From NCBI GenBank assembly GCA_949288485.1, contig CASEKC010000001.1, positions 283,806-347,805 of the forward strand: a stretch of DNA of 64,000 bases, given 5' to 3'. The notes beneath the pieces were generated by a model that saw only the letters and a list, made by a program, of their open reading frames with translations, was not told the DNA's origin and searched no databases. This DNA is from an uncultured bacterium (lineage in GTDB: Bacteria > Bacillota_I > Bacilli_A > RFN20 > CAG-826). Both the position numbers and the translations under genes were made by a program. Each line of letters starts with the position of its first letter. The first letter of the stretch is position 1. Below, piece after piece: positions 4,096-59,677 of the stretch.

Positions 4096-5059
4096 CTACA
4101 TCTCCTTTATTAAAAAGTTTTACATCAAAGCACATTGAAATCTTTTCTCTTTTAGTAAGATTTGTTGTAACACAATAACTAACTGTTTTAGCTATACATT
4201 TATAATCAAATCCTACAGAAGGTATTTTTAATGTGCCATTTATATTTTGACTAACCGCATCATAACCAATAATTTTTATTTTATTTTTATCGATATTACT
4301 TTTATCCAATAATTCTAATATATTGAATGCATTTTCATCGTTATAACAAAATATTCCTAAATTATTGATTTCATTTAGATTACTTATATATTCATCGAAG
4401 TCTTCAATATTTATTTTTTTAAATTTCCTAGTTTTTTTGATATTTCTTAAATAATTTGAAAAACCTTGATATCGTCTATTTGCACATTCACTTCCACCAA
4501 CATTAATGTATAAAAAGTTAGTACAATTTTGTTCTACTAAATATTTAGCAGCAATTTCTCCACCCTTTTCATCATCGGTATAAAGCATATCGCAATAATC
4601 ATCATCAATTTTTCTTCCAAGCATTAAGAATGGAATATTATTTAATTTCACAAATTCGAGCGATTCTTTTGTTGGTTCTACAAATGAAACTATTCCATCA
4701 ACTCTTTGATATATACATTCTTTAACTGTTTCAGAAGTAAAACTATTTCCATAAAGACATATAATTACACAAGAATAACCTTCTTTTTTAAGTAAATACA
4801 TTATCTTTTCACTCATAATAGTGAAATAATAATTTTTCATATTATTAATTACTAAAGCGATTAATTTCGAATTTTCTTCATTCATTGAATGAATAATTTT
4901 GTTAGGCAAATAGCCTAATTCTAAGGCTTTTTGCCTAACTTTTTTCTTTGTTTTTTCAGAAATATCGCTACAATCTCTTAATGCTCTTGAAACGGTATTT
5001 ATAGAAACATCAAGTTCATAAGCTATATTTTTTAAGCTTACATTTCTTTTGTAGCTCAT
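4082..5059 (-). CDS. LacI-family transcriptional regulator
   Basis: SLKNIAYELDVSINTVSRAL HTH, ELGYLPN, periplasmic-binding fold with NDENA and IIGYD. Confidence 0.95.
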   Translation of the reverse strand: MSYKRNVSLKNIAYELDVSINTVSRALRDCSDISEKTKKKVRQKALELGYLPNKIIHSMNEENSKLIALVINNMKNYYFTIMSEKIMYLLKKEGYSCVIICLYGNSFTSETVKECIYQRVDGIVSFVEPTKESLEFVKLNNIPFLMLGRKIDDDYCDMLYTDDEKGGEIAAKYLVEQNCTNFLYINVGGSECANRRYQGFSNYLRNIKKTRKFKKINIEDFDEYISNLNEINNLGIFCYNDENAFNILELLDKSNIDKNKIKIIGYDAVSQNINGTLKIPSVGFDYKCIAKTVSYCVTTNLTKREKISMCFDVKLFNKGDVDENN

Positions 5060-5070
5060 ATTCCAATTTA

Positions 5071-6639
5071 TTATTCACTAACCTTAACAATTTGAATTGA
5101 ATCAACTGTTAATGTATAAGCTTGACTATATTCAGCAAGTAATAATCCAACTCTTAAATTGCCACCAGTAACATCTTCAACAGGAGTAAATTCTTGAGAA
5201 GTAAATGTTTGATATGTATCTGCAGCATCAAAAACTAAATCAAATTTAGCATTTGCATTTGGTGTTGCGCAGAATTCTCCTCTTAAAGTTTTTACATTTG
5301 GATTATCAATTTTTGCAACGACTTGGAGGACGTATGTTTCTCCTGCGGTTAATGTATTTCCAACGTTATTTTGTTGAATTTGTGCTGCCCAATCCGCTTC
5401 TGTAGATGAATCTTTGGTAGATTTAATGACAGCTGTACCATCAACGAAATCAATTGTTATATGGCCATTTTCTTCGAGATTCCAGAACATTGAATCCAAA
5501 TCAAAATCTCCATTATATGTATCATATGGATTTTCAGGTTCGTAAGAGAATCTCCAAGTAATTTGTCTTCTTACATATGAAAAATTACCTTCACTATCAG
5601 TATAAGAGTATTCTTCTGCCCAATTTGCTAAGGTCATTGTTGATGTAAATGATGTTGGAACAACACCTCTTTTTGTTAACTTAACTTCATTTCCGTTTGC
5701 ATCTTTTGCAGTAACTTCAGGCAAAGTTTCAAGTTCATTTAAATTAGAAATTTCAACGTTTTCTGCGTTTTCAAAAACAACACCACTTGTATTTGCTGTT
5801 TTTTCTAATTTATTAACATAAACATCATCAATCCAAACAGTTGATGGAGCATCATCTGCCTCTGTAAATCTGCCTAAAAGAATTCCTAACTTAATGGCAG
5901 ATTTTGCTTCGGTTGTAGTGTAATAAAATTTAAATTCTTGATATTCATCAGTTGTTGTTAAGCCTAAACAGTTTGCATATTCCCCAACAACAGCATAACC
6001 TTCAGCAGGAACTTCAATAGAAGCACCTATATTTCTTCCAGTAGTAGATTTTGCTTTAAAAGAAATTTCATAAGTTGTATTTGCATCCAAATTTAATCCA
6101 TTATATTCAACTTGGTTATTCCAATATTCTCCGCCAGAATTAGTTATGTCAACTCTTAAAGCATTTTCAGCTTCATCCCAACTATATTCCATAACAGAAC
6201 CAGCATTACCGTTTCCACTCCAGCCTGTTACTCCAGTATCAAAAGTTGAATTATCTAAAACTGTGCCTCTTTCAACAACCCAAGTTTTAAATGCATAACC
6301 AGTATCATCAGGGTCAACTTGTTCACCATCTAAATATGCATAATAATAAACTACATATGTTCCAGGATAACCGGTATCAACATATTGGGCACTTGAGTTA
6401 GTATCAATTCTAACTTCTAATTCAGTTCCATCACTAGCAACAGCTTTAACGCCTTCTAAAAGATCTGTAGGTTGAGGATCATTCATTTGAAGAGTTACTG
6501 TATCGACGCCGCTCCATGTAACCGTCAAATCTTCACCAGGATTAACAGTATTATCATTACAAGAAGTTAACAAACCTACCGTTCCAAAAGTAAGCGTCCC
6601 TAAAAGCATAGCGCCTAAAATTATTTTTCTTTTTTTCAT
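5071..6639 (-). CDS. Surface lipoprotein with Ig-like and two CBM4/9-like carbohydrate-binding domains
   Basis: Lipobox LTSC; DLLEGVKAVASDG Ig-like start; LDNSTFD..W..EYWNNQV..TTYEISFKAKS..VWIDDV and YNGDFD..W..DWAAQIQQ..LTVDSI. Confidence 0.8.
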   Translation of the reverse strand: MKKRKIILGAMLLGTLTFGTVGLLTSCNDNTVNPGEDLTVTWSGVDTVTLQMNDPQPTDLLEGVKAVASDGTELEVRIDTNSSAQYVDTGYPGTYVVYYYAYLDGEQVDPDDTGYAFKTWVVERGTVLDNSTFDTGVTGWSGNGNAGSVMEYSWDEAENALRVDITNSGGEYWNNQVEYNGLNLDANTTYEISFKAKSTTGRNIGASIEVPAEGYAVVGEYANCLGLTTTDEYQEFKFYYTTTEAKSAIKLGILLGRFTEADDAPSTVWIDDVYVNKLEKTANTSGVVFENAENVEISNLNELETLPEVTAKDANGNEVKLTKRGVVPTSFTSTMTLANWAEEYSYTDSEGNFSYVRRQITWRFSYEPENPYDTYNGDFDLDSMFWNLEENGHITIDFVDGTAVIKSTKDSSTEADWAAQIQQNNVGNTLTAGETYVLQVVAKIDNPNVKTLRGEFCATPNANAKFDLVFDAADTYQTFTSQEFTPVEDVTGGNLRVGLLLAEYSQAYTLTVDSIQIVKVSE

Positions 6640-32944: not shown

Positions 32945-35327
<2,383 letters not shown>

Positions 35328-35355
35328 CTTTTTATCATTTTAAGATAGTTAATAT

Positions 35356-35775
35356 ATGAATAGTAATGTAATGAAATTAAGAATAGTTACGCCTTATAAA
35401 GTTATCGATTTAGAAAATGTAAAAAGCGTTAACGCTCTAACCGATTTAGGAGAAGTTGAAATTCTTCCTTTTCATTGTTCTTATTTAGCAAACATTGAAA
35501 TATCTGTTTTAACTATTAAATTTTTAGATAAAGAAAAACATTATGCTGTTGGAGGAGGAGCACTCCATTTTATTGAAGAAGAAAATACTCTCGTTTTAAT
35601 TTTAAATTCAATTATTCCAGTTCAAGATATCGATGTTGCTAAAGCTAAGAAAAAACAAATTGAAGCAGAAGCAAAATTAAAAAGAGCTTCTTCTATTTTA
35701 GAACATCGTAAAGCAGAAGTTTCTTTAAGAACATCTTTACTTGAAATAAACGCTAAAAATAACTTCAAAGAATAA
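35356..35775 (+). CDS. atpC: F1 subunit epsilon
   Basis: LRIVTP, GEVEILPFH, AVGGG, DIDVAKA. Confidence 0.95.
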   Translation: MNSNVMKLRIVTPYKVIDLENVKSVNALTDLGEVEILPFHCSYLANIEISVLTIKFLDKEKHYAVGGGALHFIEEENTLVLILNSIIPVQDIDVAKAKKKQIEAEAKLKRASSILEHRKAEVSLRTSLLEINAKNNFKE

Positions 35776-35803
35776 ATATATTATGATATATTTATTAAGC
35801 GTT

Positions 35804-35879
35804 GGGGCTTTAGCTCAGTTGGGAGAGCGCTTCCATGGCATGGAAGAGGTCGCCAGTTCGATCCTGGTAAGCTCCACCA
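35804..35879 (+). tRNA. tRNA-Ala(GGC)
   Basis: GGGGCTTTAGCTCAGTTGGGAGAGCG, arm CTTCC-ATGGCAT-GGAAG, G3:U70 pair, CCA. Confidence 0.97.
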
Positions 35880-35890
35880 AAATATAGATT

Positions 35891-35916
35891 AACACGATTT
35901 ATATCGTGTTTTTTTT
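35891..35916 (+). terminator. Terminator after tRNA-Ala
   Basis: AACACGAT-TTAT-ATCGTGTT plus T-run. Confidence 0.85.
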
Positions 35917-35936
35917 ATTTCCACGTGTAAATTATA

Positions 35937-35985
35937 ATATATTACTAGAATACTTAATATTAATATCAATTAAGCTAGTTTCATT
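35937..35985. repeat. 49-bp direct repeat, copy 1
   Basis: ATATATTACTAGAATACTTAATATTAATATCAATTAAGCTAGTTTCATT; 48/49 identical to 39645-39693. Confidence 0.9.
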
Positions 35986-36034
35986 TAAAACGATTGTATT
36001 TTCAGTATTATAAATATTAAATTCATTTATTAAA

Positions 36035-36415
36035 TTAAAACGAATTATAAAAAGTAAAACTAATTCCGAAGATAAACAAAATAGTCGATAAAAGAAAAAT
36101 TATTAAAGATATATAAAAAGGAAACTCTTTATAATTCCTTAATATAAGTTTTGATATATAAAGAGTATTAAAAACTATTCCTCCAATATTCAACAAAGTT
36201 AACAAAATTGCTAAAATTGGCACTCTCTCAATCATCAAATAATTAATAACATAAACAGACGAAGAATCACTATCAATGATTTTATCTACATATACACCAA
36301 ATGAGGTGAAGGTAAGTATTAAATAAATTATCGAAAAAAACATAAAAATAATACTTAAAATTATAGATTTATCATTTTTAAAAAGTATTTTTATTTTTTC
36401 AATCATTTGCTTCAT
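36035..36415 (-). CDS. Small three-TM membrane protein, paralogue of 36452-36790
   Basis: Shared pattern TF..F...VD.....SS.Y..N......P.....T.....GI..NTL.......K..PFY..II. Confidence 0.8.
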   Translation of the reverse strand: MKQMIEKIKILFKNDKSIILSIIFMFFSIIYLILTFTSFGVYVDKIIDSDSSSVYVINYLMIERVPILAILLTLLNIGGIVFNTLYISKLILRNYKEFPFYISLIIFLLSTILFIFGISFTFYNSF

Positions 36416-36451
36416 TTTTTTGAAAAACCTTTATTATAAAATTGTGATTTT

Positions 36452-36790
36452 TTACCTAGTTTGAACAACAAAACTATTTATACCGCCTATTATAAAGAAG
36501 ATAAAACTTAGCGATAGAAAAATAATAGCTAGATAAAACGGATATCTTTTTTCAGTAGATATAATATCTCCAAGAGTTAAAGTATTAACAATTATTCCAC
36601 TAACACTGCTAATTGTTATTAATGCACACATAAGCGGGGAATTACTAACAATTGAAATGTTGTAAAAATAAATAGAACTTTCGCTTATAGGAGGATGGTA
36701 ATCAACGACAGTTTTAAAATTTACGAATGTAAATACCAATAATAAAATTTCTAAAAATAAAAATGTAATTAAAATAATCTTTTTAGTCAT
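36452..36790 (-). CDS. Small three-TM membrane protein, paralogue of 36035-36415
   Basis: Same pattern; ATGA overlap with upstream peptidase stop. Confidence 0.8.
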   Translation of the reverse strand: MTKKIILITFLFLEILLLVFTFVNFKTVVDYHPPISESSIYFYNISIVSNSPLMCALITISSVSGIIVNTLTLGDIISTEKRYPFYLAIIFLSLSFIFFIIGGINSFVVQTR

Positions 36791-37968
36791 AAGTTATTAT
36801 ATTCCTCAACTTTCCCACAAGGGCAAATAGATTTATTCGTTTGTGTATTTATATAATTATTTGAATGTTTATGTACGTCACTTTTAAACTCAATATCGAT
36901 TGAACCAAACTCATAAAAATTAGTGCCTGATTCATGACCATTGTCAAAGGTTTCCCACCATGTTTTAGCAATGTGCCCCCATCCAGTATGAACATAAACG
37001 AAATCTGAGTCGTAAGCAAAAGCAACTGTTGAATGTCCACAACCATTGGTTATAACCGGCCTATTTTCTTTAATAGTATTTTTAATTATATCTATATTTC
37101 TTCCTGAAAAAATATCTGACAGATTTCCTTCACAAGTATTTAAAACATAATTATCACCATCAAAACCACGAGACATTAAATAACGATTAACAAAATCAAT
37201 ATGAGCTTTAGTACCTAAACCATTGCCAGGATCATCGTACCATACATTATCTTTTAAAAATAAGTAAAGATAATCATGAAATGCACTAACCTCAAATTCA
37301 TCGGTGCCAGGTGATTGATTAAAACTTCTTATATTATTCGTACTATGTTCTTCTTTTGTAGGAATATCATATGTATCTAATACTAAACTGTCATTAACAA
37401 ATGTATCATAGTAACCTAAAAGTATCTGAGTCGAGACAATAAAACATGTCCCATCACTATTTTGACCATGCTTATTCCTTAACTTTTCAAAATAAAACGA
37501 ATTATTAATCTTTGTAGCACTTGTTGGAATACTGTATATCTCTTCATAATCTCCAGCTTCGAAATTTAATTCTGCAATTTTATGTAAATTGTCATCTTCA
37601 ATTATTATATCGCTATTTAAATCAATGAAATTCCTTCCATTAAAAACAATTTCGTTAATATCCCCTTTCTCAGCAAAAATTTTTAAGAATTTTTGATCAT
37701 AAGATTCATATGGAAAAAATGATTGCTCCCATTTCTTTGTTACTTCACCATTCAATTTGTTCTCTAAAATATAATTGTCATCATATTTATACAATGTGTA
37801 TTTATTAGCGCCACTTGGTGTATAGACTTCATCAATATATTGTTTTCTTAAATTTATAGTATTGCTTTTTAAATTACTATTTTCTAAATTATCATAATTT
37901 ACAAATGACCTGACATTTGTTGCCTCAAATAAAGAAGCCAAAGCAATACCGAGTAAATATTCAACCAT
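36787..37968 (-). CDS. Putative secreted papain-fold cysteine peptidase (C10/C39-like)
   Basis: GQNSDGTC (Cys), RPVI..GCGHSTVAFAY (His), VYVHTGWG; hydrophobic N-terminus; AGGAGG RBS. Confidence 0.7.
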   Translation of the reverse strand: MVEYLLGIALASLFEATNVRSFVNYDNLENSNLKSNTINLRKQYIDEVYTPSGANKYTLYKYDDNYILENKLNGEVTKKWEQSFFPYESYDQKFLKIFAEKGDINEIVFNGRNFIDLNSDIIIEDDNLHKIAELNFEAGDYEEIYSIPTSATKINNSFYFEKLRNKHGQNSDGTCFIVSTQILLGYYDTFVNDSLVLDTYDIPTKEEHSTNNIRSFNQSPGTDEFEVSAFHDYLYLFLKDNVWYDDPGNGLGTKAHIDFVNRYLMSRGFDGDNYVLNTCEGNLSDIFSGRNIDIIKNTIKENRPVITNGCGHSTVAFAYDSDFVYVHTGWGHIAKTWWETFDNGHESGTNFYEFGSIDIEFKSDVHKHSNNYINTQTNKSICPCGKVEEYNNL

Positions 37969-38132
37969 AAAAACCTCCTTAATCTCATGCGATTGATATT
38001 AATAATATTAACTTTATAATATATTTAACTATGATTGATAATCAAAATAATTATTACTTTTTTATTGTTCTTATTTCGAACATTTGATTTTTATCGCATT
38101 TTTATAGGCTTTTAGATAAAATATTTATTAGT

Positions 38133-38639
38133 ATGATTGATAAAAAAGTAATAGGACAAAATATTAAAAATATTAGATATAAGTTGGGGTTAAGTCAAGA
38201 TGAATTTTCATCAAAAATATTTATATCAAGGTCATCACTATCAAAAATTGAAAATGGTAAGCAACTTATTGATTTAGATTTATCAATAACTATTTCAGAA
38301 ACTTTTAATGTCCCTTTAAGTGAAATTTTAAAAGGTTCTTATAAAGAAAATAAAGAATCAACAATTAACTCAAATTATAAATTTAAAGTTTATTTTAATA
38401 TTTCTTTATTATCACTTATTTTAATACTTCTACTTTTTCAATATTTTTATTCGCTTTCTAACAAGCTTTATTATAATCAAGTTTATTCATCATTATGGCG
38501 GTATTTTAAATTTGACCAACCATATTTAATATTGTTTAACCTTTTGTTTTATTTTTTGCTTATTTTAGAAATAATATCTTTTGTTTTACTTATAAGGAGT
38601 TTAATTAATGTTAAAAAATTTGAAAATAGTCGTAATTAA
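38133..38639 (+). CDS. XRE-family HTH regulator with two C-terminal TM helices
   Basis: IGQNIKNIRYKLGLSQDEF...ISRSSLSKIENG...FNVPLSEIL followed by two hydrophobic helices. Confidence 0.9.
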   Translation: MIDKKVIGQNIKNIRYKLGLSQDEFSSKIFISRSSLSKIENGKQLIDLDLSITISETFNVPLSEILKGSYKENKESTINSNYKFKVYFNISLLSLILILLLFQYFYSLSNKLYYNQVYSSLWRYFKFDQPYLILFNLLFYFLLILEIISFVLLIRSLINVKKFENSRN

Positions 38640-39606
38640 TTTAATATCAATTTTTAGTTTTTGCACTTTTTCTTCTTGCGCTAAAGAAAATGCAAGTGAA
38701 TATACGAAAATTGATTTTATTAATGATTTTGATTTAAGCAATAATCTTATTTATAAAGTCAAAGATAATATCCATTCTCTTAATTTCACTTTTAATAGTC
38801 TTTCTTTTTTTAATAATATTTATTCAAATAAAAAATATATTATTGAGATTGGAAAATTAAACTTTGAAAAAAGTTTATCTATAAACGAAATAAAATTAAA
38901 ATCTTCTTTTGCTATAACTCCCTTAGCTTTAAAAGAAGCAATAAAATATATAGAAAAAATATATACAAATAATGATTCAAAAACATTTTTTTATTTTAAT
39001 GAAAACATAAATGAAGATTTAATTGAACATAATGTTTCATTTACTGTATTAAATAAAAACAATAATCTTTTAGGAATTTTAAAAGAAGATTTTTACATTT
39101 TTAAAAGTAATATAGATAATAATATTTACTATTCATTATTTAGTGATTATATTTTTTATCCTTATAATAATCGATATCGTATTAAAAAATTTAGCGATGA
39201 TTATTTAGTTAATCATTATGTTTATGAAAGATATCAATTTCCTTTAAATAGAAATATTAAAAATTTAAATGAATTTAATGATGAACTTTTTGTATCCTTT
39301 TCTAATAAAAATATAGATTTTTATATTAAAAATTCTTTTAATAGTTTTTCACCCAATATTAAAACCGAAGCAACTATATTAAATACAAATATATCATACG
39401 AATTTATTAACCCATCATCGAACAAATTCCCTTATATGGGATACTATTCCTCACCTATTTCTTTTTGTAGCTTTCTTTCGTTAAAAAAAGATAATTTAAA
39501 TGAAGAATTAAAAATAAATAAAAATATGGGCGTTTCAATATTAAAGTCAAATGGAAGTATTTTTGATAACGAAGAATATTCTTTTACATTAACAAGTTTT
39601 CTTTAA
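38608..39606 (+). CDS. Hypothetical lipoprotein
   Basis: Lipobox-like FSSC; 332-aa ORF overlapping the XRE gene by 32 nt. Confidence 0.7.
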   Translation: MLKNLKIVVINLISIFSFCTFSSCAKENASEYTKIDFINDFDLSNNLIYKVKDNIHSLNFTFNSLSFFNNIYSNKKYIIEIGKLNFEKSLSINEIKLKSSFAITPLALKEAIKYIEKIYTNNDSKTFFYFNENINEDLIEHNVSFTVLNKNNNLLGILKEDFYIFKSNIDNNIYYSLFSDYIFYPYNNRYRIKKFSDDYLVNHYVYERYQFPLNRNIKNLNEFNDELFVSFSNKNIDFYIKNSFNSFSPNIKTEATILNTNISYEFINPSSNKFPYMGYYSSPISFCSFLSLKKDNLNEELKINKNMGVSILKSNGSIFDNEEYSFTLTSFL

Positions 39607-39642
39607 AATGATCTTTTATTAATTAATAATATTATTGAAAAA

Positions 39643-40212
39643 CTATATATTACTAGAATACTTAATATTAATATCAATTAAACTAGTTTCATTAAAGATT
39701 GATGTATCTAAATATAAATAATATAAATTATAAGAAGAATCTTGATAAACTTTTATTCCTTCTTCTAACTTATCATCAATAATAAAATCAATACTGATTT
39801 TATTATTGAATAAATTATTTTTAATAGATACATAATAAGTAGGATATGAAGATGAATGAGTTATAATCAAAGTTTCAATTATCATTTTATTAACTAATTC
39901 ATTTTTAGTTAATAATCCTAGACTACCTTTATTTTCTTGAATAATCTCATAAAATGTTGAAATACGTTTATAATATTCTTCATAACCAAGTTTTTTATAT
40001 TTTAAAGAGTCATTTTCTAAATATTCATTAATAATATCAGATAATGTAAATTCATTTTCATTTGTCTTCCCAGGAATCGCAAAAAAACGAAAATGGCCAG
40101 CTTCTTTTTCTAAGTTATTAATCTTAAAATCTTTATTAATATTATTACAAGAAGTTAAAATATTAAATAATAGAATAAACGATATAGCTTTAATAAAATT
40201 TCTTTTTTTCAT
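39643..40212 (-). CDS. Hypothetical lipoprotein
   Basis: MKKRNFIKAISFILLFNILTSC lipobox. Confidence 0.75.
   Translation of the reverse strand: MKKRNFIKAISFILLFNILTSCNNINKDFKINNLEKEAGHFRFFAIPGKTNENEFTLSDIINEYLENDSLKYKKLGYEEYYKRISTFYEIIQENKGSLGLLTKNELVNKMIIETLIITHSSSYPTYYVSIKNNLFNNKISIDFIIDDKLEEGIKVYQDSSYNLYYLYLDTSIFNETSLIDINIKYSSNI
39645..39693. repeat. 49-bp direct repeat, copy 2 (3' end of the 189-aa lipoprotein gene)
   Basis: ATATATTACTAGAATACTTAATATTAATATCAATTAAACTAGTTTCATT. Confidence 0.9.
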
Positions 40213-40299
40213 ATTTTTTATACCTTTTATTAAAATAAGAAAAAAATAACTTAGTTTTGGTGCATAAATTTTGATTTTTAAATAAAAAATATAATAAAT

Positions 40300-40377
40300 T
40301 GGCGCCCACGAGAGGATTCGAACTTCCGACTTTCACCTTAGGAGGGTGCTACTCTATCCAAGCTGAGTTACGTGGGC
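40300..40377 (-). tRNA. tRNA-Arg(CCT)
   Basis: Acceptor GCCCACG/CGTGGGC, arm GCACC-CTCCTAA-GGTGA, TTCGAAT, CCA. Confidence 0.92.
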
Positions 40378-40395
40378 ACTTTTTATATTATATAT

Positions 40396-43300
40396 TTAAA
40401 AATCACTAAATAAAGATAATTCTTCACTTTCTCTTAAATGCGATAAACTACCCATAGTTTTTAAAACATCTATTACTTTTGAAGGTAATTTTGCTCTTTT
40501 AGTAAAATCTTCAACACTATCGAATTCTCTTTCTTCACGAGCTTTAATAACACTTTCTCCACCGTTTTCACCAATTCCATCTAAGACTTTAAATGGTGGA
40601 ATAAGAGATTTGGTTTCTTTATCGATAATAAAATCATTACTCATTGATCTATTAATATCAATTTTTTGGAATTTAAAGCCTCTTTCAGCAAATTCTAAAG
40701 CGACAATTAAAGTATCTAAAATACCTTCTTCTTTATTAGATAATTTTTGAGTTGGATCTTTTGAAACTTTACGTTTTTCAAATTCTTCAATTTTTTCATG
40801 AATTGCATCGATTCCTTTAATCATCACATCAATATCATATTGATCACATCTTAAAGTAAAGAATGTTGCATAAAATTCAAGTGGATAATAAATTTTAAAA
40901 TAACCAACACGAAGAGCCATCATAACATAAGCACAAGCGTGTCCTTTTGGGAAAAGATATTTAATTTTCTTACATGAATCAATGTAATAAGAAGGAACGT
41001 TATGATTTTCCATATCTAAAATTTGTTCATCAGATAATTTTTTACCTTTTCTAACTGTTTCCATAATAGTGAAGGCTTTTGAATTATCTAATCCCATAGA
41101 AATAAGATATGACATAATATCATCTCTACATCCAATAACCCCATTAATATCGGTAATTCCATTAGCAATTAAACTTTGAGCATTATTCGACCAAACATCT
41201 GTACCATGTGAAAGACCTGAAACAATTAATAATTGCTTAAATGATGTTGGTTTTGCTTCACGTAAAAGTTGTTTAACAAAGTTAGTTCCAAATTCAGGAA
41301 TTCCAGTTGTTCCAACATCATTTTTTATATATTTATGTTGAAGTTTTAAAACATCATTACTTGTAAATAAGGAGATAATATTTTTATCATCCATTGGTAT
41401 ATCTTTAATATCAACACGTGCTAAATTTGACATCATTCTTAAAGCTTGAGGATCAACGTGTCCAAGCATATCAAGTTTTAAAATAGTATCGTGAATAGCA
41501 TGGAAATCGAAGTGAGTCGTTTTCCATTCAACGGTAGTATCATTAGCTGGATATTGAACAGGGGTAAAATCATAAATTTCCATATCACGTGGAACAACGA
41601 CAATACCTCCTGGATGTTGACCGGTTGTTCTTTTAATTCCAACACATCCATAAGCTAAAGCTGCAACATATGAACCTTTAATTTTATCAGGATTTAATCC
41701 TTCATTTTCAAAAAACTTTCTTACATATCCATAAGCAGTTTTAAATTGAACTGAAGAAATAGTTCCTGCTCGATAAACCTTATCTTCACCAAGTAAAACT
41801 TTAGTAAAGGTGTGAGCTGTTGATTGGAAATCAGCAGGGAAATTTAAATCGATATCAGGGACTTTTTCAGCTTTAAATCCTAAGAATGTTTCAAAAGGAA
41901 TATTTTGTCCATCTTTAATCATTTTTGTTCCGCATTCTGGACATTCTTTATCTGGAAGGTCGTAGCCAGAAGTAATTCCATCACTCATATCATGGAATTC
42001 AACATGTTTACAATGTGGGCATCTATAATGAGGAGGAAGTGGATTAACTTCAGTAATTCCTCCACAATATGCAGCAAAAGATGAACCAACAGATCCTCTT
42101 GAACCAACGATATATCCTCTTTCATTTGTCATCCTAACAAGTTCATGAGCAATATAATAAGTAACCGAATATCCATTACCAATAATTCCATCAAGTTCTT
42201 GTTTTAAACGATTTTCAATATATGCAGGAAGCCTTTCACCATATTCTTCGTGAGCTTTTTTATAACAAAGTTCTGTCAATAAATTCTCACAGTTATCGAT
42301 TTTTGGAGTATATAATTTATCTTCGATTGGAATAATCACTTCACACATGTCTGCAATTTTATTTGTGTTAGTAATAACATATTCTTTAATTTTTTCTTCA
42401 TCTTCTAGCCAAGCAAAAGCATCTAACATTTCTTTTGTAGACATAAAATGTTGATCAGGATTTTCGAATTTTGGATAATTTTTTCTAGAATATGGATTTA
42501 AAGGATGGTTAACATCACCAACTCCCTTGGCAGTGATCATTACGTCGCGATAAATTTTGTCACTAGGATTAACATAATGACAATCTCCAGTAGCAACAAT
42601 CATCTTATTTTGTTTATTCGCTTCATCAATTATACTTCTTAAATACATTTTTAAGATGTCTTCATTTTGAATTTGATGAGTATTAATTAAAAAAGAATAA
42701 TTATTTAAAGGTTGTAATTCTATGTAATCATAATAAGAAATTGCTTTCGAAAGAGTTTTTTCATCTCTATAAGCTGCATCATAAAATACATCGCCATTAA
42801 AACAAGCCGAGCCAATAAGTAAATTCGAACGATATTTATTTAATAATGAACGTGGTACAAGCGGTATATTTCCAACATAATTACATTCAGAAATTGAAAT
42901 AATTTTATATAAATCTTTCAATCCTTCTCTATTTTTAGCTAAAACAGTCGCATGAGTTGCGCTTCTTGTATTTTTATAAAGTTCTTTAGGATAATTTAAA
43001 GCGGTTAAATCTAAAAGAGTTGGTTCTTTAATCTTTTGATCAATCATGACTTTTAAAGCAGCCCAACAAGAAGATAAAACTTGAGCATCGTAATCAGCTC
43101 TATGTGCGCTTTCATCATCATAATTAACATCTAATCTATTACATAAAGCTTTTAAACTATGACCTCTATTAAGTGGGAAAATATAACGTGATAAAGCAAG
43201 AGTATCGATAACAGGATGAATAAACTCAACTCCATAAGTTTCTTTAAAAGCACGATTAAGATGCTCATAATCGAAATTTGCGTTATGAGAAATCAAAATT

Positions 43301-52447: not shown

Positions 52448-53386
52448 TTACTTATTTTTTGTCGAATTTTGTGGGAAATATTTGTTATATTCGTTTTTAA
52501 TTTTTTCTTTTGAAACATGCATATAAATTGAGGTTGTTCCAACTGATTCATGCCCCATAAGTTCTTGAATCATTCTTAAGTCTGCTCCCTTATCTAAAAG
52601 ATGAGTTGCAAAAGAATGCCTTAAAACGTGAGGATGTAAATCAAATCCTAATGAAAGACCCGTTTTTTTAACAATTTCTTTTAAAATATATTCTAAACCA
52701 CGACTAGTTAATTGTTTTCCTTTAGAATTTAGGAAAAAATAAGGTGTTTTTTTATCAACTTCATTATCTTCTATTAATTGAACTCTTAAAAATTTAGCAT
52801 AATCAATCATCGCGATTTTAGCATCATTAGAAAAAGGAACGATTCTTTCTTTATTTCCTTTACCAATAATTCGCATATAACGAGATGAAAAAACAATATC
52901 GCTCGTTTTTAAATTAATTACTTCAGAACATCTTAAACCAGAAGAATACATCAATTCTAATAAAGCTTGATCACGGCTTTGCAAATTATCTACACGCTTT
53001 TTATTTGCTTCTAATAAAGCTTTAATTTGTGATTCGTATAAAACTTCAGGCAATTTATCATGCTTTTTAGGTGATACGATTAATAAAAACGGATTAGAAT
53101 CGACCATATTTAAATCATATAAATAAGAATAATATTTTTTTAAAGCCGAAATTCTTCTTCTAAGAGATCTAGGAGATTCATTATTTCCTCGATAAGTTTT
53201 ATTTTTCAATCGTTCAGCCATAAATAGACGAACATCATCACGTGTTATTTTTCTAAAATCTAATTGTTTTTCAATTAAAAAGTTCTCAAAAATATTTATA
53301 TCTTGAGAGTATGATTTAATAGTATTTTCACTATAATTTAATTCGTGTTTAAGATGCGATAAAAATAATGCTTGCTCTTTAGTCAT
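52448..53386 (-). CDS. xerC: Tyrosine recombinase XerC (CodV-like)
   Basis: SGLRCSE, GKGNKERIVP, HPHVLRHSFATH, LMGH, TSIY; synteny after trmFO. Confidence 0.9.
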   Translation of the reverse strand: MTKEQALFLSHLKHELNYSENTIKSYSQDINIFENFLIEKQLDFRKITRDDVRLFMAERLKNKTYRGNNESPRSLRRRISALKKYYSYLYDLNMVDSNPFLLIVSPKKHDKLPEVLYESQIKALLEANKKRVDNLQSRDQALLELMYSSGLRCSEVINLKTSDIVFSSRYMRIIGKGNKERIVPFSNDAKIAMIDYAKFLRVQLIEDNEVDKKTPYFFLNSKGKQLTSRGLEYILKEIVKKTGLSLGFDLHPHVLRHSFATHLLDKGADLRMIQELMGHESVGTTSIYMHVSKEKIKNEYNKYFPQNSTKNK

Positions 53387-54668
53387 TTAAATATTTTTTA
53401 AATTCTTCAATTGCCTTTAAAGAAGTATCGATTACTTTGTTTTTGTCTTCTTTATTTGCTCTATAAATTATACCAAAATTTGCATTCATCGGTTGAAAAT
53501 TGTTTAGTCCGGTATGTGTTATATATCTAACTAATGCACCTAAAACAGTATTAAAAGATAATGGCTTAAATTCTTTATTTTTAAGACGTAAATATAAATA
53601 TATTGCTGCTAATAAGCCACTAGCTGCGCTTTCAACATAGCCTTCAACTCCACTAAGTTGACCAGCAATAAAAATATTTTTATTAACTTTCATCGATAAA
53701 TCATCATTTAATATTTTTGGAGCATAAATATAAGAATTTCTATGCATTAATCCATATCTTGCAAATTTGGCATTTTCTAAACCTGGAATAAGTGAAAAAA
53801 CTCTTTTTTGTTCACCGTATGTTAAATTTGTTTGAAAACCTACTAAATTATAAAAATCTCCAATTAAATCATCCTGTCTTAATTGAACAACCGCATAATA
53901 TTGATGGTTGTTATTTTCTAATCCAACCGGTTTCAAAGGACCGAATCTTAATGTATCGATTCCTCTAGAAGCTAAAACTTCAATTGGAAGACAACCTTCA
54001 AAATAATTTTTATCAAAATCATGAAGTAACGCTTTTTTTGCATTAATTAGCTCATTATAGAACTTAAAATATTCTTCTTTTTCCATTCCGCAGTTTATAT
54101 AAGAGCCATCATCTTGGTCATATCTTGATTTTATAAAAACTTTTGAAAAATCAATTGAATCTTTATAGATAATTGGTGCTGAAGCATCATAAAAACCATA
54201 ACTATCAATTTTAGTTAAAGAATTAATTTCATCTAAAATTTCTTTTCCACTCAATGGACCAGTCGCAATAATATTAATTCCTTCAGGTAATTTTGTTGCA
54301 TTTTCCTTAATAATAGTTATATTAGGATTATTTTTAATTTTTTCTGTTATATAAGACGCAAAAATTTCTCTATCAACTGCCAAAGCATCTCCACTTTTAA
54401 CTTCGCTTACTTTGCTTGCTTCCATCATTATTGAGCCTAAACGAGAAATTTCTTCTTTTAATAAACCACAAGCATTATCAAGTTTTTTACTTTTTAATGA
54501 ATTTGAACAAACAAGTTCACCAAAAAGATCGCTATGATGGGCGCCATCGTTAAATTCAGGTCTTCTTTCATATAGATTAACTTTAATGCCACGATTTGCT
54601 AAGAAATTAGCAGCCTCTGAGCCAGCTAAACCAGCTCCAATAATATTTATAACTAAATCTTTATCCAT
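53379..54668 (-). CDS. trmFO: Folate-dependent tRNA m5U54 methyltransferase
   Basis: GAGLAGSEAA, ELVCSNSL, YFEGCLPIE, VGFQT, GVEGYVES. Confidence 0.96.
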   Translation of the reverse strand: MDKDLVINIIGAGLAGSEAANFLANRGIKVNLYERRPEFNDGAHHSDLFGELVCSNSLKSKKLDNACGLLKEEISRLGSIMMEASKVSEVKSGDALAVDREIFASYITEKIKNNPNITIIKENATKLPEGINIIATGPLSGKEILDEINSLTKIDSYGFYDASAPIIYKDSIDFSKVFIKSRYDQDDGSYINCGMEKEEYFKFYNELINAKKALLHDFDKNYFEGCLPIEVLASRGIDTLRFGPLKPVGLENNNHQYYAVVQLRQDDLIGDFYNLVGFQTNLTYGEQKRVFSLIPGLENAKFARYGLMHRNSYIYAPKILNDDLSMKVNKNIFIAGQLSGVEGYVESAASGLLAAIYLYLRLKNKEFKPLSFNTVLGALVRYITHTGLNNFQPMNANFGIIYRANKEDKNKVIDTSLKAIEEFKKYLND

Positions 54669-56742
54669 TATTTTTACCATTAATAGGTTCTATATAGTCG
54701 CAATTTGGATAAGAAGAACAGCCATAAAAATAGCCTCTTTTGCTTCTTCTTTTAACTAAAAGAGCTCCACATTTAGGACAGTATCTTTTTTCTTCTTCCT
54801 CTCCTTGATCAATATATCGGCAATTTGGGAAATTTGAGCAGCCAATAAATGTATCGCCTTTTTTGTTTTTACGATAAACGAGCGGAGAGCCACAATTAGG
54901 GCAATTTCTTCCTACCTCAATTGGTTTCTCTTTTTCTTCTTTTTTAATATATTTACAACTTGGATAATTGCTGCAAGCAACAAATTCCCCATATCTTCCT
55001 TTTCTAACTACTAAATCTGAACCACAAACTGGACATTGTTCACCAGTTTTTTTAAGAGGTTCTTTATACATTTGGTCTTTAACTTCATTAAATTTATCAA
55101 TAAATGGGAAATAAAAATCAGAAATAACTTTCTTCTCATCTGCTTCACCATTTTGAATTCTATCAAGATTATTTTCCATTTCAGCAGTATATTCAGTATT
55201 TATTAAGTCAGGGAAATATTTTGCTAAAACTTTAGAAGTTAAAACACCTTGTTCTGTTGGAGTTAAAATTCCTTTTGAAGAAGTAATATATTTTCTTGCT
55301 ACTAAAGTTTGGATTGTGGAAGAATAGGTAGAAGGTCTACCAATACCCTTTTCTTCCATCAATTTTACAAGCTTTCCTTCGCTATATCTTGCTGGCGGTT
55401 TTGTTTCATCTTCTTCAAGCTTTACATCAGTAAGATCATACTTATCTCCGATTTTAAATTCTGGAATTAAATTATCAGCTTCTTCGTCTTTAAAAACATC
55501 AAAACCAGGGAATAAAGTTTTTGAGCCGGTTAATTTGAAATTTAATGAATTTGTTGCTTCAAGTATAACGCTTGTTTGTAAGACTTTTTTATTGCTCATT
55601 AAACAAGAAACGCTTCTTTCAAAAATTAATTTATATAGTTTATAAGCTTTTGCTGATAAATATTTTTTCATTTTTTCTGGAGTTCTTTCTAAAGAAGTTG
55701 GACGAATTGCTTCGTGTGCGTCTTGGGCATTTTTAACTTCTTTTTTACTAACTTGTGGTCCTTTATAAAACTCTTCACCATATTTTGAAATAATATAATC
55801 TTTACAATAAGAGATAAATAAATCAGAAAGTTTTGTTGAATCTGTTCTAATATATGTAATTAAGCCAGTTAAGCCTTCATCAGTTTCAATACCCTCATAT
55901 AATTCTTGGGCTAAAAAAGTAGTTTCTTTTGTTGAAAAACCGTATTTAGAAAATGCAGCTTGTTGCAAAGTAGATGTTCTAAATGGTTCTTTCGCACTTA
56001 AAAATTTCTCTTTTGAATCAACTAATAAAACTTTAACTTCATTTGTTAATGTATCAAGAGCTTCTTTAGCTAAGTTTTCATCTTTAAAATTATCCATCTT
56101 TTCATTTTTATAAGAAACTAAACTCAATGGAAATTTATTTTCTTTAACTTTTAAAGATGCAAACAATTTATAAAATTTTTCACTTTTAAAGTCTTGAATC
56201 TCTTTTTCGTGATCACAAATTAACTGTAATGCGACTGATTGAACTCTACCTGCACTTTCACTATTAATTTTTGCCTTTAGAAGACTAGAAAGTTTAAAAC
56301 CAATGATTCTATCAATAATTCTTCTTGTTTCTTGAGCGTGAACAAGATTCATATCGATAGTTCTTGGATTTTCAATTGCCTTTTTTATTGAATCTTTAGT
56401 AATTTCATGAAATTCTAATCTTTTTGTTGATTCAATAGGCAAATCTAAAACTTTAGCTAAAGAATATGCAATAGCTTCTCCTTCTCTATCAGGGTCGGTT
56501 GCAAGAATAACTTCCTCAGCTTTTTTTGCACTTTTTTTAAGTGTTTTAACTAAACTAAGTTTATCTTTTGAAATAATATATTTAGGTTCAAAGTTATTTT
56601 CAACATCAACACCAAGTCCACCTTTTCCAGAAATAGCTAAATCTTTTACGTGGCCTTTAGATGCTTCGACTTCATAACCTTCCCCTAAATAATGAGCGAT
56701 AGTTTTACTTTTTGTTGGTGATTCTACAATAACTAATTTCAT
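54661..56742 (-). CDS. topA: DNA topoisomerase I
   Basis: IVESPTK, ATDPDREGEAI, SAGRVQS, ITYIRTDS, AHEAIRPT, three C4 zinc ribbons. Confidence 0.98.
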   Translation of the reverse strand: MKLVIVESPTKSKTIAHYLGEGYEVEASKGHVKDLAISGKGGLGVDVENNFEPKYIISKDKLSLVKTLKKSAKKAEEVILATDPDREGEAIAYSLAKVLDLPIESTKRLEFHEITKDSIKKAIENPRTIDMNLVHAQETRRIIDRIIGFKLSSLLKAKINSESAGRVQSVALQLICDHEKEIQDFKSEKFYKLFASLKVKENKFPLSLVSYKNEKMDNFKDENLAKEALDTLTNEVKVLLVDSKEKFLSAKEPFRTSTLQQAAFSKYGFSTKETTFLAQELYEGIETDEGLTGLITYIRTDSTKLSDLFISYCKDYIISKYGEEFYKGPQVSKKEVKNAQDAHEAIRPTSLERTPEKMKKYLSAKAYKLYKLIFERSVSCLMSNKKVLQTSVILEATNSLNFKLTGSKTLFPGFDVFKDEEADNLIPEFKIGDKYDLTDVKLEEDETKPPARYSEGKLVKLMEEKGIGRPSTYSSTIQTLVARKYITSSKGILTPTEQGVLTSKVLAKYFPDLINTEYTAEMENNLDRIQNGEADEKKVISDFYFPFIDKFNEVKDQMYKEPLKKTGEQCPVCGSDLVVRKGRYGEFVACSNYPSCKYIKKEEKEKPIEVGRNCPNCGSPLVYRKNKKGDTFIGCSNFPNCRYIDQGEEEEKRYCPKCGALLVKRRSKRGYFYGCSSYPNCDYIEPINGKNNG

Positions 56743-59601: not shown

Positions 59602-59638
59602 AGTGTTCATATATAATAGTTAAATATAGCGGACCACT
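59602..59638 (-). ncRNA. L19 leader RNA
   Basis: AGTGGTCCGCTATAT...ATATATGAACACT: CCGCU motif in a stem just upstream of the rplS RBS. Confidence 0.65.
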
Positions 59639-59677
59639 CGTATCATTTTTAATTAAATTCCTTAAAAATGCTTTAAT

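Follow-up and report, generated by a model that had tools for sequence, protein, structure and literature searches.

How the closing codons of a gene come to stand twice in a bacterial chromosome, once at the end of the gene and once about 3.7 kb away as an orphan, is the question raised by a locus in contig CASEKC010000001.1 (assembly GCA_949288485.1) of an uncultured bacterium of the Bacillota_I lineage CAG-826. The locus lies in a stretch of 64,000 nucleotides (contig positions 283,806 to 347,805, forward strand), termed here the window; the genome holding it is designated G000, its contig C1, and coordinates are window positions unless a contig is named. Two 49-nt direct repeats, copy 1 (35937-35985) and copy 2 (39645-39693), bracket a segment hereafter called the cassette. 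The copies are identical at 48 of 49 positions, the lone mismatch being a G at 35974 in copy 1 and an A at 39682 in copy 2, and their ungapped similarity reaches 63 nt at 89%. Copy 2 forms the final 16 codons, NETSLIDINIKYSSNI, of a 189-residue open reading frame (ORF) on the minus strand (39643-40212) that encodes a putative lipoprotein; copy 1, read in the lipoprotein frame, gives NETSLIDINIKYSSNIL followed by a stop, with no gene body attached. The original prediction, made from the letters of the window, had described a near-identical repeat formed by a working and an orphan C-terminus, and the alignment bears out each of these points. The genome-wide search for further copies that it had proposed, carried out over the whole assembly (1.36 Mb in 15 contigs), found the repeat exactly twice, as copies 1 and 2. 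In a self-BLAST of the genome, filtered for direct repeats of 35-400 nt that are at least 92% identical and lie 300 nt to 60 kb apart on the same contig, this pair has the highest identity among the nine listed. Judged from sequences and ORF maps, none of the other eight duplicates a gene end in this way; these eight resemble terminators, paralogous genes, a repeat within a 945-residue ORF that has an ABC-ATPase-like motif, and the ends of other elements.

The lipoprotein gene was sought in 40 relatives, 24 of them of the same genus, and besides G000 it was found in one, the sister species G008 (94% amino-acid identity). In G008 the gene body runs into a single repeat, a Leu codon with the stop TAA and then a terminator hairpin, joining the right flank of copy 2 to the left flank of copy 1 through one repeat. 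This is an exact empty site. Comparison of window positions 35300-40450 with G008 gave strong matches at query positions 1-595 and 4346-5150 only, and no cassette DNA was matched in that genome. The insertion altered the end of the lipoprotein from ...SSNIL (TAA) to ...SSNI (TAG), and the locus is thus a discrete insertion with a duplicated target. The single-repeat allele whose existence the original prediction had offered as its own test is therefore present in G008; relatives do not all carry both copies, and the view that the repeats are the scar of an integration into the 3' end of the gene is supported. The explanation that best accounts for the data, held here at a probability of about 0.8, is that a 3.66-kb cassette was inserted into the last 16 codons of the lipoprotein gene, is non-autonomous, and spreads and is lost by recombination.

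The history of the site extends beyond the cassette. In the more distant genome G067, taken to show the ancestral state, whose atpC and polC products share 71% and 77% amino-acid identity with those of the window, the order is atpC, tRNA-Ala, 57 nt with one hairpin, tRNA-Arg and polC, and the interval between the tRNA genes contains neither the lipoprotein gene nor the cassette. In G016 the same two tRNA genes are about 240 nt apart. Because of these short intervals the lipoprotein gene is itself regarded as an insertion, and it is accessory in this small clade. Together with the empty site of G008, the intervals therefore indicate a two-layer history in which the lipoprotein gene was gained between the tRNA genes and 3,659 bp were later gained within its last codons.

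The G008 locus has a further peculiarity. A multi-copy insertion sequence (IS)-like element, bounded by 22-nt terminal inverted repeats and flanked by an 8-bp target duplication, lies between tRNA-Ala and the hairpin, as seen at 2110-2194 of L006 and 2085-2190 of L009 (contigs C11 and C15). G008 has nine occurrences of its terminal repeat, of which six or more lie some 55-95 nt from the end of a contig; G000 and G064 have none. The G008 contigs break at this locus because the multi-copy element sits there.

The cassette has clearly moved between species recently, because it is 99.5% identical (19 differences in 3,659 nt) between G000 and a third genome, G064, across a background of 88% identity; over about 36 kb the identity to G000 is 88.2% for G064 and 87-88% for G008. 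G064 holds the complete structure, including both repeats, and its copy 1 carries the same G variant. In successive 500-nt intervals G000 and G064 are 98.6-100% identical from 36000 to 39500, as against 78-92% in the flanking genes. Differences between the two genomes are dense up to 35715 and zero in 35716-36255, which sets the left edge of the exchanged tract about 220 nt to the left of copy 1; the tract thus covers the end of atpC, tRNA-Ala, the hairpin and copy 1. Within the 145 non-tRNA bases of this left portion about 14 differences would be expected at a 10% background, and none was observed. On the right side the next difference falls at 39687, which is core position 43 in copy 2, and from 39702 on differences are again closely spaced; the right edge of the tract is inside copy 2. 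The transfer appears best explained as an allele replacement by homologous recombination, one crossover lying in the conserved tRNA region and the other in the 49-bp core. Alternatively, a site-specific event may have been followed by a second recombination on the left.

The original prediction had taken the near identity of the repeats as the sign of a recent event. This holds for the movement of the cassette, 99.5% identical against 88%, and needs qualifying for the structure itself, as at least three species-level lineages carry it, in two sequence variants about 4% apart. Close to the site (35000-35894 and 39645-40500) G000 and G008 are 95-98.7% identical against the background of about 88%, and this neighbourhood, comprising the end of atpC, the tRNA genes and the lipoprotein gene, looks to have been recently exchanged between these two genomes as well, leaving a mosaic of identity. 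Eight of the 19 cassette differences between G000 and G064 cluster at 38991-39088, within the gene for a 332-residue putative lipoprotein; the cluster could represent a small recombination patch or a local diversifying change. Among 185,579 species genomes the core pattern was found in G008 and G064 only, and metagenome contigs and viral contigs gave no match; these searches needed exact or close matches, such that a diverged partner could be missed. A protein-guided scan of metagenome contigs matched 369 stretches, none of which was confirmed as a relative. Cassette DNA was matched in two of 60 genus genomes, G000 included.

Both forms of the gene end are represented among proteins. The lipoprotein family forms just two clusters at 90% identity among 5.8 billion proteins, the main one having 18 members, 15 of which are listed. 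Three of these 15 are 190 residues long and end in ...NIL, the empty type (7 contigs), eleven are 189 residues long (33 contigs), and one is a 62-residue fragment; the second cluster contributes two further 189-residue variants (4 contigs). Two 173-residue gene bodies, 12 residues apart, are each found with both ends: P0077 (189 residues), which is the window's own sequence, pairs with P0083 (190 residues), and P0082 (189 residues) with P0079 (190 residues). Because both gene bodies occur with both ends, at least two gains, losses or exchanges of the cassette, the exchanges by recombination that ended within the core, appear to have taken place. At core positions 5 and 31 the tail variants Lys188 and Asn180, both confined to the occupied-type proteins of one group, occur in differing combinations, which hints at variable crossover points.

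Sequencing runs provide a view of the locus in populations. The stretch is represented in part in fifteen runs and for the most part in four, all as k=31 Logan contigs. In run X1 the unitig of the repeat (37 nt, 35937-35973) has a depth of 39.7 against 17.8-19.5 for its neighbours, the corresponding values in X4 are 140 and 72-76, and in both runs a 3,731-nt cassette contig stands at flank depth. This means that there are two repeat copies and one cassette per genome, and of the amplification that the original prediction had also allowed for there is no sign. In X5, a chicken-gut run whose left-flank variants match those of G008 at 12 of 13 listed positions, the flanks have a depth of 86-89. 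The X5 cassette contig (135 other letters in 3,757; depth 49.1; record 18) begins in the unique left flank at 35912 and bridges the left junction; its copy 1 has a 10-nt deletion and two substitutions. A second X5 contig of 60 nt (35912-35971; depth 48.3) is without the deletion and stops where the right-flank contig starts. From these contig coordinates and depths we read X5 as a population in which occupied and empty alleles are about equally abundant.

The same runs bear on the possibility that the arrangement is an artefact of assembly, in which a free 3.7-kb circle or foreign DNA was threaded into the chromosome through the shared 49 bp. A circle plus an empty site gives, at k=31, the same graph as an integrated cassette, and flank and cassette are linked in X1 and X4 by the 37-nt unitig alone. 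Against this stand the identical placement of the cassette in two independent assemblies, G000 and G064, the depths in X1 and X4, where the cassette equals its flanks and the repeat counts twice, and the X5 contig that spans unique left flank, copy 1 and cassette. In addition, 11 of the main cluster's 15 listed variants share the 189-residue frame with its stop on the cassette side. An artefact, the outcome that the original prediction had itself set against its proposal, is thus very improbable.

The polarity of the change deserves separate consideration. If lipoprotein gene and cassette arrived together as a single 4.4-kb island with the repeat already inside it, the empty sites would be precise deletions. 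Such a co-arrival is consistent with the lack of both gene and cassette in G067 and with the close spacing of the tRNA genes in G016. It also fits X5, where cassette (135 of 3,757 letters) and flanks (21 of 883 and 27 of 707) differ from G000 to a similar extent, and a deletion between the copies would yield the G008 sequence exactly. The duplicated gene end, however, would still require an earlier insertion, the event merely being shifted elsewhere, and the empty-type path in X5 is without the 10-nt deletion and is not, therefore, a simple derivative of the occupied allele. Co-arrival is considered unlikely.

Insertion of the cassette into a resident gene remains the preferred history, and a sequence of steps can be proposed for it. 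The incoming DNA, possibly as a circular intermediate, would have shared a sequence of roughly 49 bp with the lipoprotein gene, and a single crossover there, either site-specific or of the Campbell type, would have integrated it. The gene would have retained a working end in copy 2 (...SSNI, with TAG supplied from the cassette side), and the original end, copy 1 with ...SSNIL-TAA and the terminator, would have been displaced by 3.7 kb. The cassette, being without a recombinase, would now be non-autonomous. In its spread among strains and species the right crossover would fall in the 49-bp core and the left one in the tRNA-Ala/terminator region or again in the core; recombination between the two copies, a plausible route of loss, would restore the empty allele. 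For the original event a tyrosine recombinase, acting in trans or since lost, is the leading candidate at somewhat under an even chance, followed by RecA-type Campbell integration at about one chance in three and by other routes with the smaller remainder. Present-day spread is probably mainly homologous. RecA-type recombination would require only the 49-bp identity and could explain both the G064 tract and the variable tail variants.

The sharper form of this explanation, which overlaps it, is that of a strictly site-specific element, a cis-mobilizable element (CIME) or the satellite of an unseen integrative element, in which the repeats are the attachment sites attL and attR and a tyrosine integrase encoded elsewhere, be it in the genome or on a helper element, excises and integrates the cassette at a fixed point of the core. 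The direct repeat at a gene 3' end, the restored frame and the exact empty site are as expected of such an element, as is the presence of both alleles on two identical gene backgrounds. Within the repeat, an imperfect 36-nt palindrome is a possible recombinase core site; its degree of self-complementarity is attained by 0.0175% of 200,000 random 36-mers from the genome, and the probability is still about 0.003 after correction for the choosable positions. The genome has 11 matches to PF00589, about seven of them of phage-integrase length. In both G000 and G064 copy 1 keeps the G at core position 38, and copy 2 of G064 keeps that genome's own Ser176 codon (core position 43), a pattern of variants that fits a crossover near the stop-codon end of the core. 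Pulling the other way, there is no integrase in or beside the cassette and no second element with this core in the searched collections, the G064 tract extends over 220 nt of the chromosome to the left of copy 1, the X5 variant has a degenerate copy 1, and the variants at core positions 5 and 31 occur in differing combinations, suggesting crossover points that vary. Strict site specificity is accordingly entertained as a tentative reading, with roughly one chance in three. More doubtful still is the proposal that the palindromic core would be a dedicated site at which a recombinase encoded elsewhere repeatedly inserts and excises the cassette.

Several points weigh against the insertion of a non-autonomous cassette as set out above. 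No element with the same core beside an integrase was found in the searched collections, in which the core is confined to G008 and G064. Cassette and lipoprotein gene could have come together, with the empty sites arising later by deletion. The left tract of about 220 nt in G064 fits homologous allelic replacement better than a fresh site-specific integration, and the deletion and substitutions in X5 indicate that copy 1 is not strongly conserved as a site. The equation of 189 residues with the occupied and 190 with the empty allele is drawn from G000, G064 and G008 together with X5. Finally, no excised circle or deletion joint was seen among contigs built at k=31, a length at which joints of this kind are masked by a 49-bp repeat. 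The listed joints include none that connects copy 1 with copy 2, and the skips, whose short sides measure 20-29 letters in all but two cases, are read as noise.

Two further origins for a duplicated gene end were considered. A tandem duplicate of the lipoprotein gene might have been mostly overwritten, leaving copy 1 as its remnant, or a transposon might have generated a giant target-site duplication. On the cassette side any homology outside the 49 bp is marginal. Read in the lipoprotein frame, the 14 codons lying upstream of copy 1 give NEFNIYNTENTIVL where the gene has SYNLYYLYLDTSIF, with 8 of 14 nt identical and a local score of p about 0.04, a weak resemblance of the kind that a duplicate might leave. 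The ends of the cassette are also weakly similar in inverted orientation (p about 0.017), as a transposon might have. A decayed duplicate, however, would be expected to diverge evenly rather than to retain 48 of 49 positions beside near-random sequence, and three coincident breakpoints would be needed. The transposon, for its part, would be without a transposase, 10 of 30 terminal positions match as inverted repeats, and the duplication of 49 bp is, to our knowledge, far beyond that made by known transposases. Neither origin is given more than a very slight chance.

An integrative mobile element exploiting Xer (IMEX), with the repeats as dif-like sites at the replication terminus used by the host XerC/D, would need no integrase, and in its favour the genes converge on the locus, the local GC skew flips and the repeat is palindrome-like. 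Across the whole contig, on the other hand, the cumulative skew peaks at about 105 kb on C1, at a distance of 215 kb from the locus, and the local flip simply mirrors the direction of the atp operon. The repeat has 11 mismatches in 28 positions to the Bacillus subtilis dif motif, and a better candidate, with five mismatches, lies at C1:107533. By contig-wide skew and comparison with this motif a dif or IMEX element was excluded, its residual chance being negligible. The site at C1:107533, the best match to the motif, is at the skew maximum, and a gene for a Xer-like recombinase (C1:111506-112021) lies 4 kb from it; it is likely to be the replication terminus and dif site.

The features of the locus are collected in Table 1. 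On the plus strand the order is atpG, atpD, atpC (ending at 35775), tRNA-Ala, hairpin, copy 1, cassette, copy 2 with the lipoprotein gene, tRNA-Arg and polC, the last on the minus strand. The two flanking tRNA genes and the hairpin had not been part of the original prediction. The hairpin originally also terminated the lipoprotein gene, as it still does in G008, where the stop codon of the gene leads directly into it. Repeats derived from tRNA genes, a possible source of attachment sites, were ruled out, as neither of the flanking tRNA genes has a match of 11 nt or longer inside 35880-40299. A paralogue of the lipoprotein (38-42% identity) is encoded at an unrelated locus in both G000 (C3:49329-49868; L004) and G008 (C2:54457-54963; L007). 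The tail of the G008 paralogue reads ...LYYVYLDNSIYDLNKPIKINYDSLM and is without the 49-bp core, and the neighbourhoods of the two paralogues do not repeat the cassette genes.

Table 1. Features of the occupied locus, in window positions.
Feature	Position	Strand	Basis or remark
tRNA-Ala(GGC), conserved left border of the variable spot	35804..35879	+	ARAGORN; Rfam tRNA 59.7 bits
Bidirectional terminator hairpin	35891..35910		Terminator scan, both strands
Copy 1, orphaned original 3' end of the lipoprotein gene	35932..35985	-	Repeat plus original Leu and TAA stop (35932-35937); same as the end of the intact G008 gene
Imperfect palindrome, 36 nt, within the repeat	35944..35979		28/36 self-complementary
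Inserted cassette, 3,659 bp	35986..39644		GC 22.6% vs 28.4% in flanking genes
Small multi-pass membrane protein, 126 aa	36035..36415	-	ORF; no family match (Pfam, PHROGs, NCBIfam, PADLOC)
Small multi-pass membrane protein, 112 aa	36452..36790	-	ORF
Predicted papain-fold cysteine peptidase, 393 aa	36787..37968	-	Homologues, model, Foldseek
XRE-family helix-turn-helix (HTH) regulator, 168 aa, divergent from the peptidase gene	38133..38639	+	PF12844 and PF01381 above cut-off; PHROG repressor families
Putative lipoprotein, 332 aa	38608..39606	+	ORF; FSSC lipobox-like; convergent with the 189-aa gene; no family match
189-aa lipoprotein gene, insertion target	39643..40212	-	Lipobox-like LTSC
Copy 2, working 3' end of the lipoprotein gene	39645..39693	-	TAG stop (39643-39645) from the cassette side
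tRNA-Arg(CCT), conserved right border of the variable spot, then polC	40300..40377	-	ARAGORN; Rfam

Five ORFs occupy 36035-39606 of the cassette except for a 164-nt divergent intergenic gap, which is the promoter region. The two small membrane proteins are paralogues (37% identity, E 4e-16). The regulator is, in our reading of its hydrophobic C-terminal half, membrane-anchored. The 332-residue putative lipoprotein shows no significant similarity to the 189-residue target protein and is unrelated to it. Scans of the five proteins against Pfam, PHROGs, NCBIfam and PADLOC recognized the HTH domain alone, with no recombinase family, transposase or transfer gene, and none of the PF00589 matches in the genome falls within the cassette (C1:319.7-323.5 kb). 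These results agree with the earlier statement that no integrase or transposase lies between the copies. A phage or plasmid origin was considered and set aside, as phage and plasmid collections contained no DNA match to the cassette and the core was not found in viral contigs.

The 393-residue protein had been labelled a peptidase in the original prediction, a label upheld by its fold and distant homologues and not by Pfam, in which the protein itself matches no family and falls short of the PF01640 cut-off. It has 73 homologues at E ≤ 1e-5, some carrying PF01640 (Peptidase_C10) or PF13529 (Peptidase_C39_2), and one is labelled by its source as a C10 family peptidase from an Anaeroplasmataceae bacterium. 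In single scans at E ≤ 0.01, PF01640 was recognized in six of 24 homologues (best 8.8e-06) and PF13529 in seven of 24. An alignment of 24 sequences shows that His312 is invariant and Cys175 nearly so; these residues, by their resemblance to familiar motifs, are presumably the catalytic pair. A profile search of PDB sequences with the peptidase alignment gave no match. With the AlphaFold2 model (mean predicted local distance difference test score 86.1) as query, Foldseek ranked prointerpain A and the SpeB zymogen first and C39-like peptidases and papain next, at probabilities of 0.99-1.0 and template modelling (TM) scores of just 0.25-0.36. The likeness to Peptidase C10 enzymes such as SpeB and interpain A thus lies in a papain-like fold, a probable pro-region, the conserved Cys175 and His312 and the C10 zymogens at the head of the structural matches. 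The protein differs from them in falling below every Pfam threshold, in the lack of matches in the PDB profile search and in its low TM-scores. From the model and the homologues it is therefore called a predicted papain-fold cysteine peptidase whose nearest family is C10 (streptopain/interpain-like). Its homologues in G051 and G016 have different neighbours, and the notion of a conserved five-gene peptidase module was rejected because of these differing surroundings.

The properties of the cassette may be set beside those of known mobile elements. A passage of one source (PMC5704250) describes CIMEs as elements whose integration and transfer genes have been lost and whose attL and attR are kept. 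The cassette resembles these in its direct-repeat flanks, one of which is the working 3' end of a gene, in containing cargo and no integrase or transfer genes, and in being present or absent at a fixed site. It differs in that no integrative and conjugative element (ICE) or integrative and mobilizable element (IME) of the same site specificity was found in searches for exact or close matches, in measuring just 3.7 kb, and in its host, an uncultured low-GC Bacilli (Mollicutes-like) gut lineage and not a streptococcus. The cassette, moreover, clearly spreads in part by flank homology, and the att role of its repeats is assumed. It would thus appear to work like a CIME or a small integrase-less island without being a proven member of either.

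Tyrosine-integrase islands and prophages insert at the 3' end of a tRNA gene or a protein gene, to which they bring a replacement end. The duplicated gene end, the restored frame, the empty site in relatives, the lower GC content and the variable spot flanked by tRNA genes are all shared with such islands; the cassette differs from them in having no integrase and in targeting a lineage-specific lipoprotein gene and not a conserved gene or a tRNA gene. Accessory cassettes at hot spots are exchanged by homologous recombination of the flanking core genes and normally have no duplicated gene end. The G064 tract, running from the atpC end and tRNA-Ala to the core, and the mosaic identity around the site recall these, in contrast to which the gene end is duplicated here and the right crossover is confined to the 49-bp repeat.

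The locus provides a clean, fully delimited case of a small cassette without a mobility gene crossing species of uncultured, reduced-genome gut bacteria; occupied, exact empty and ancestral sites are all known, and the transferred tract is mapped to within a few bases. The cargo, a predicted secreted or surface set comprising a streptopain-like peptidase, a lipoprotein, membrane proteins and a membrane-tethered regulator, is polymorphic in chicken-gut populations and may influence how the bacteria interact with their host or with other microbes nearby. For annotation, an orphan repeat of a gene end can flag cassettes that are invisible to island finders based on integrases. If the core were a dedicated site, the locus would switch a secreted C10-type protease module on and off at the level of populations of these uncultured, Mollicutes-like gut bacteria, and the cassette would be a minimal hitchhiker element that targets a gene end and has no known autonomous partner.

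Other recombinase genes and repeats in G000 provide context for the cassette. In the window, a gene for a 312-residue tyrosine recombinase with a PF00589 match (52448-53386) follows ORFs of 433 and 693 residues on the minus strand, and this row (52448-56742) resembles, by gene order and sizes, the topA-trmFO-codV (xerC) row of Firmicutes. By size and neighbours the enzyme is probably a housekeeping XerC/CodV-like recombinase unlinked to the cassette. On contig C6 a 113-nt direct repeat (85516-85628 and 91778-91890; 95% identical, 6.3 kb apart) beside tRNA-Thr may mark another small island with repeat ends. On C5 a 65-nt direct repeat (59611-59675 and 90162-90226; 92% identical) spans 30.5 kb, with a tyrosine recombinase gene at C5:61136-61642 and two adjacent partial recombinase matches at 92099-92607, and this pair looks like the att-like ends of a conventional integrase-bearing element.

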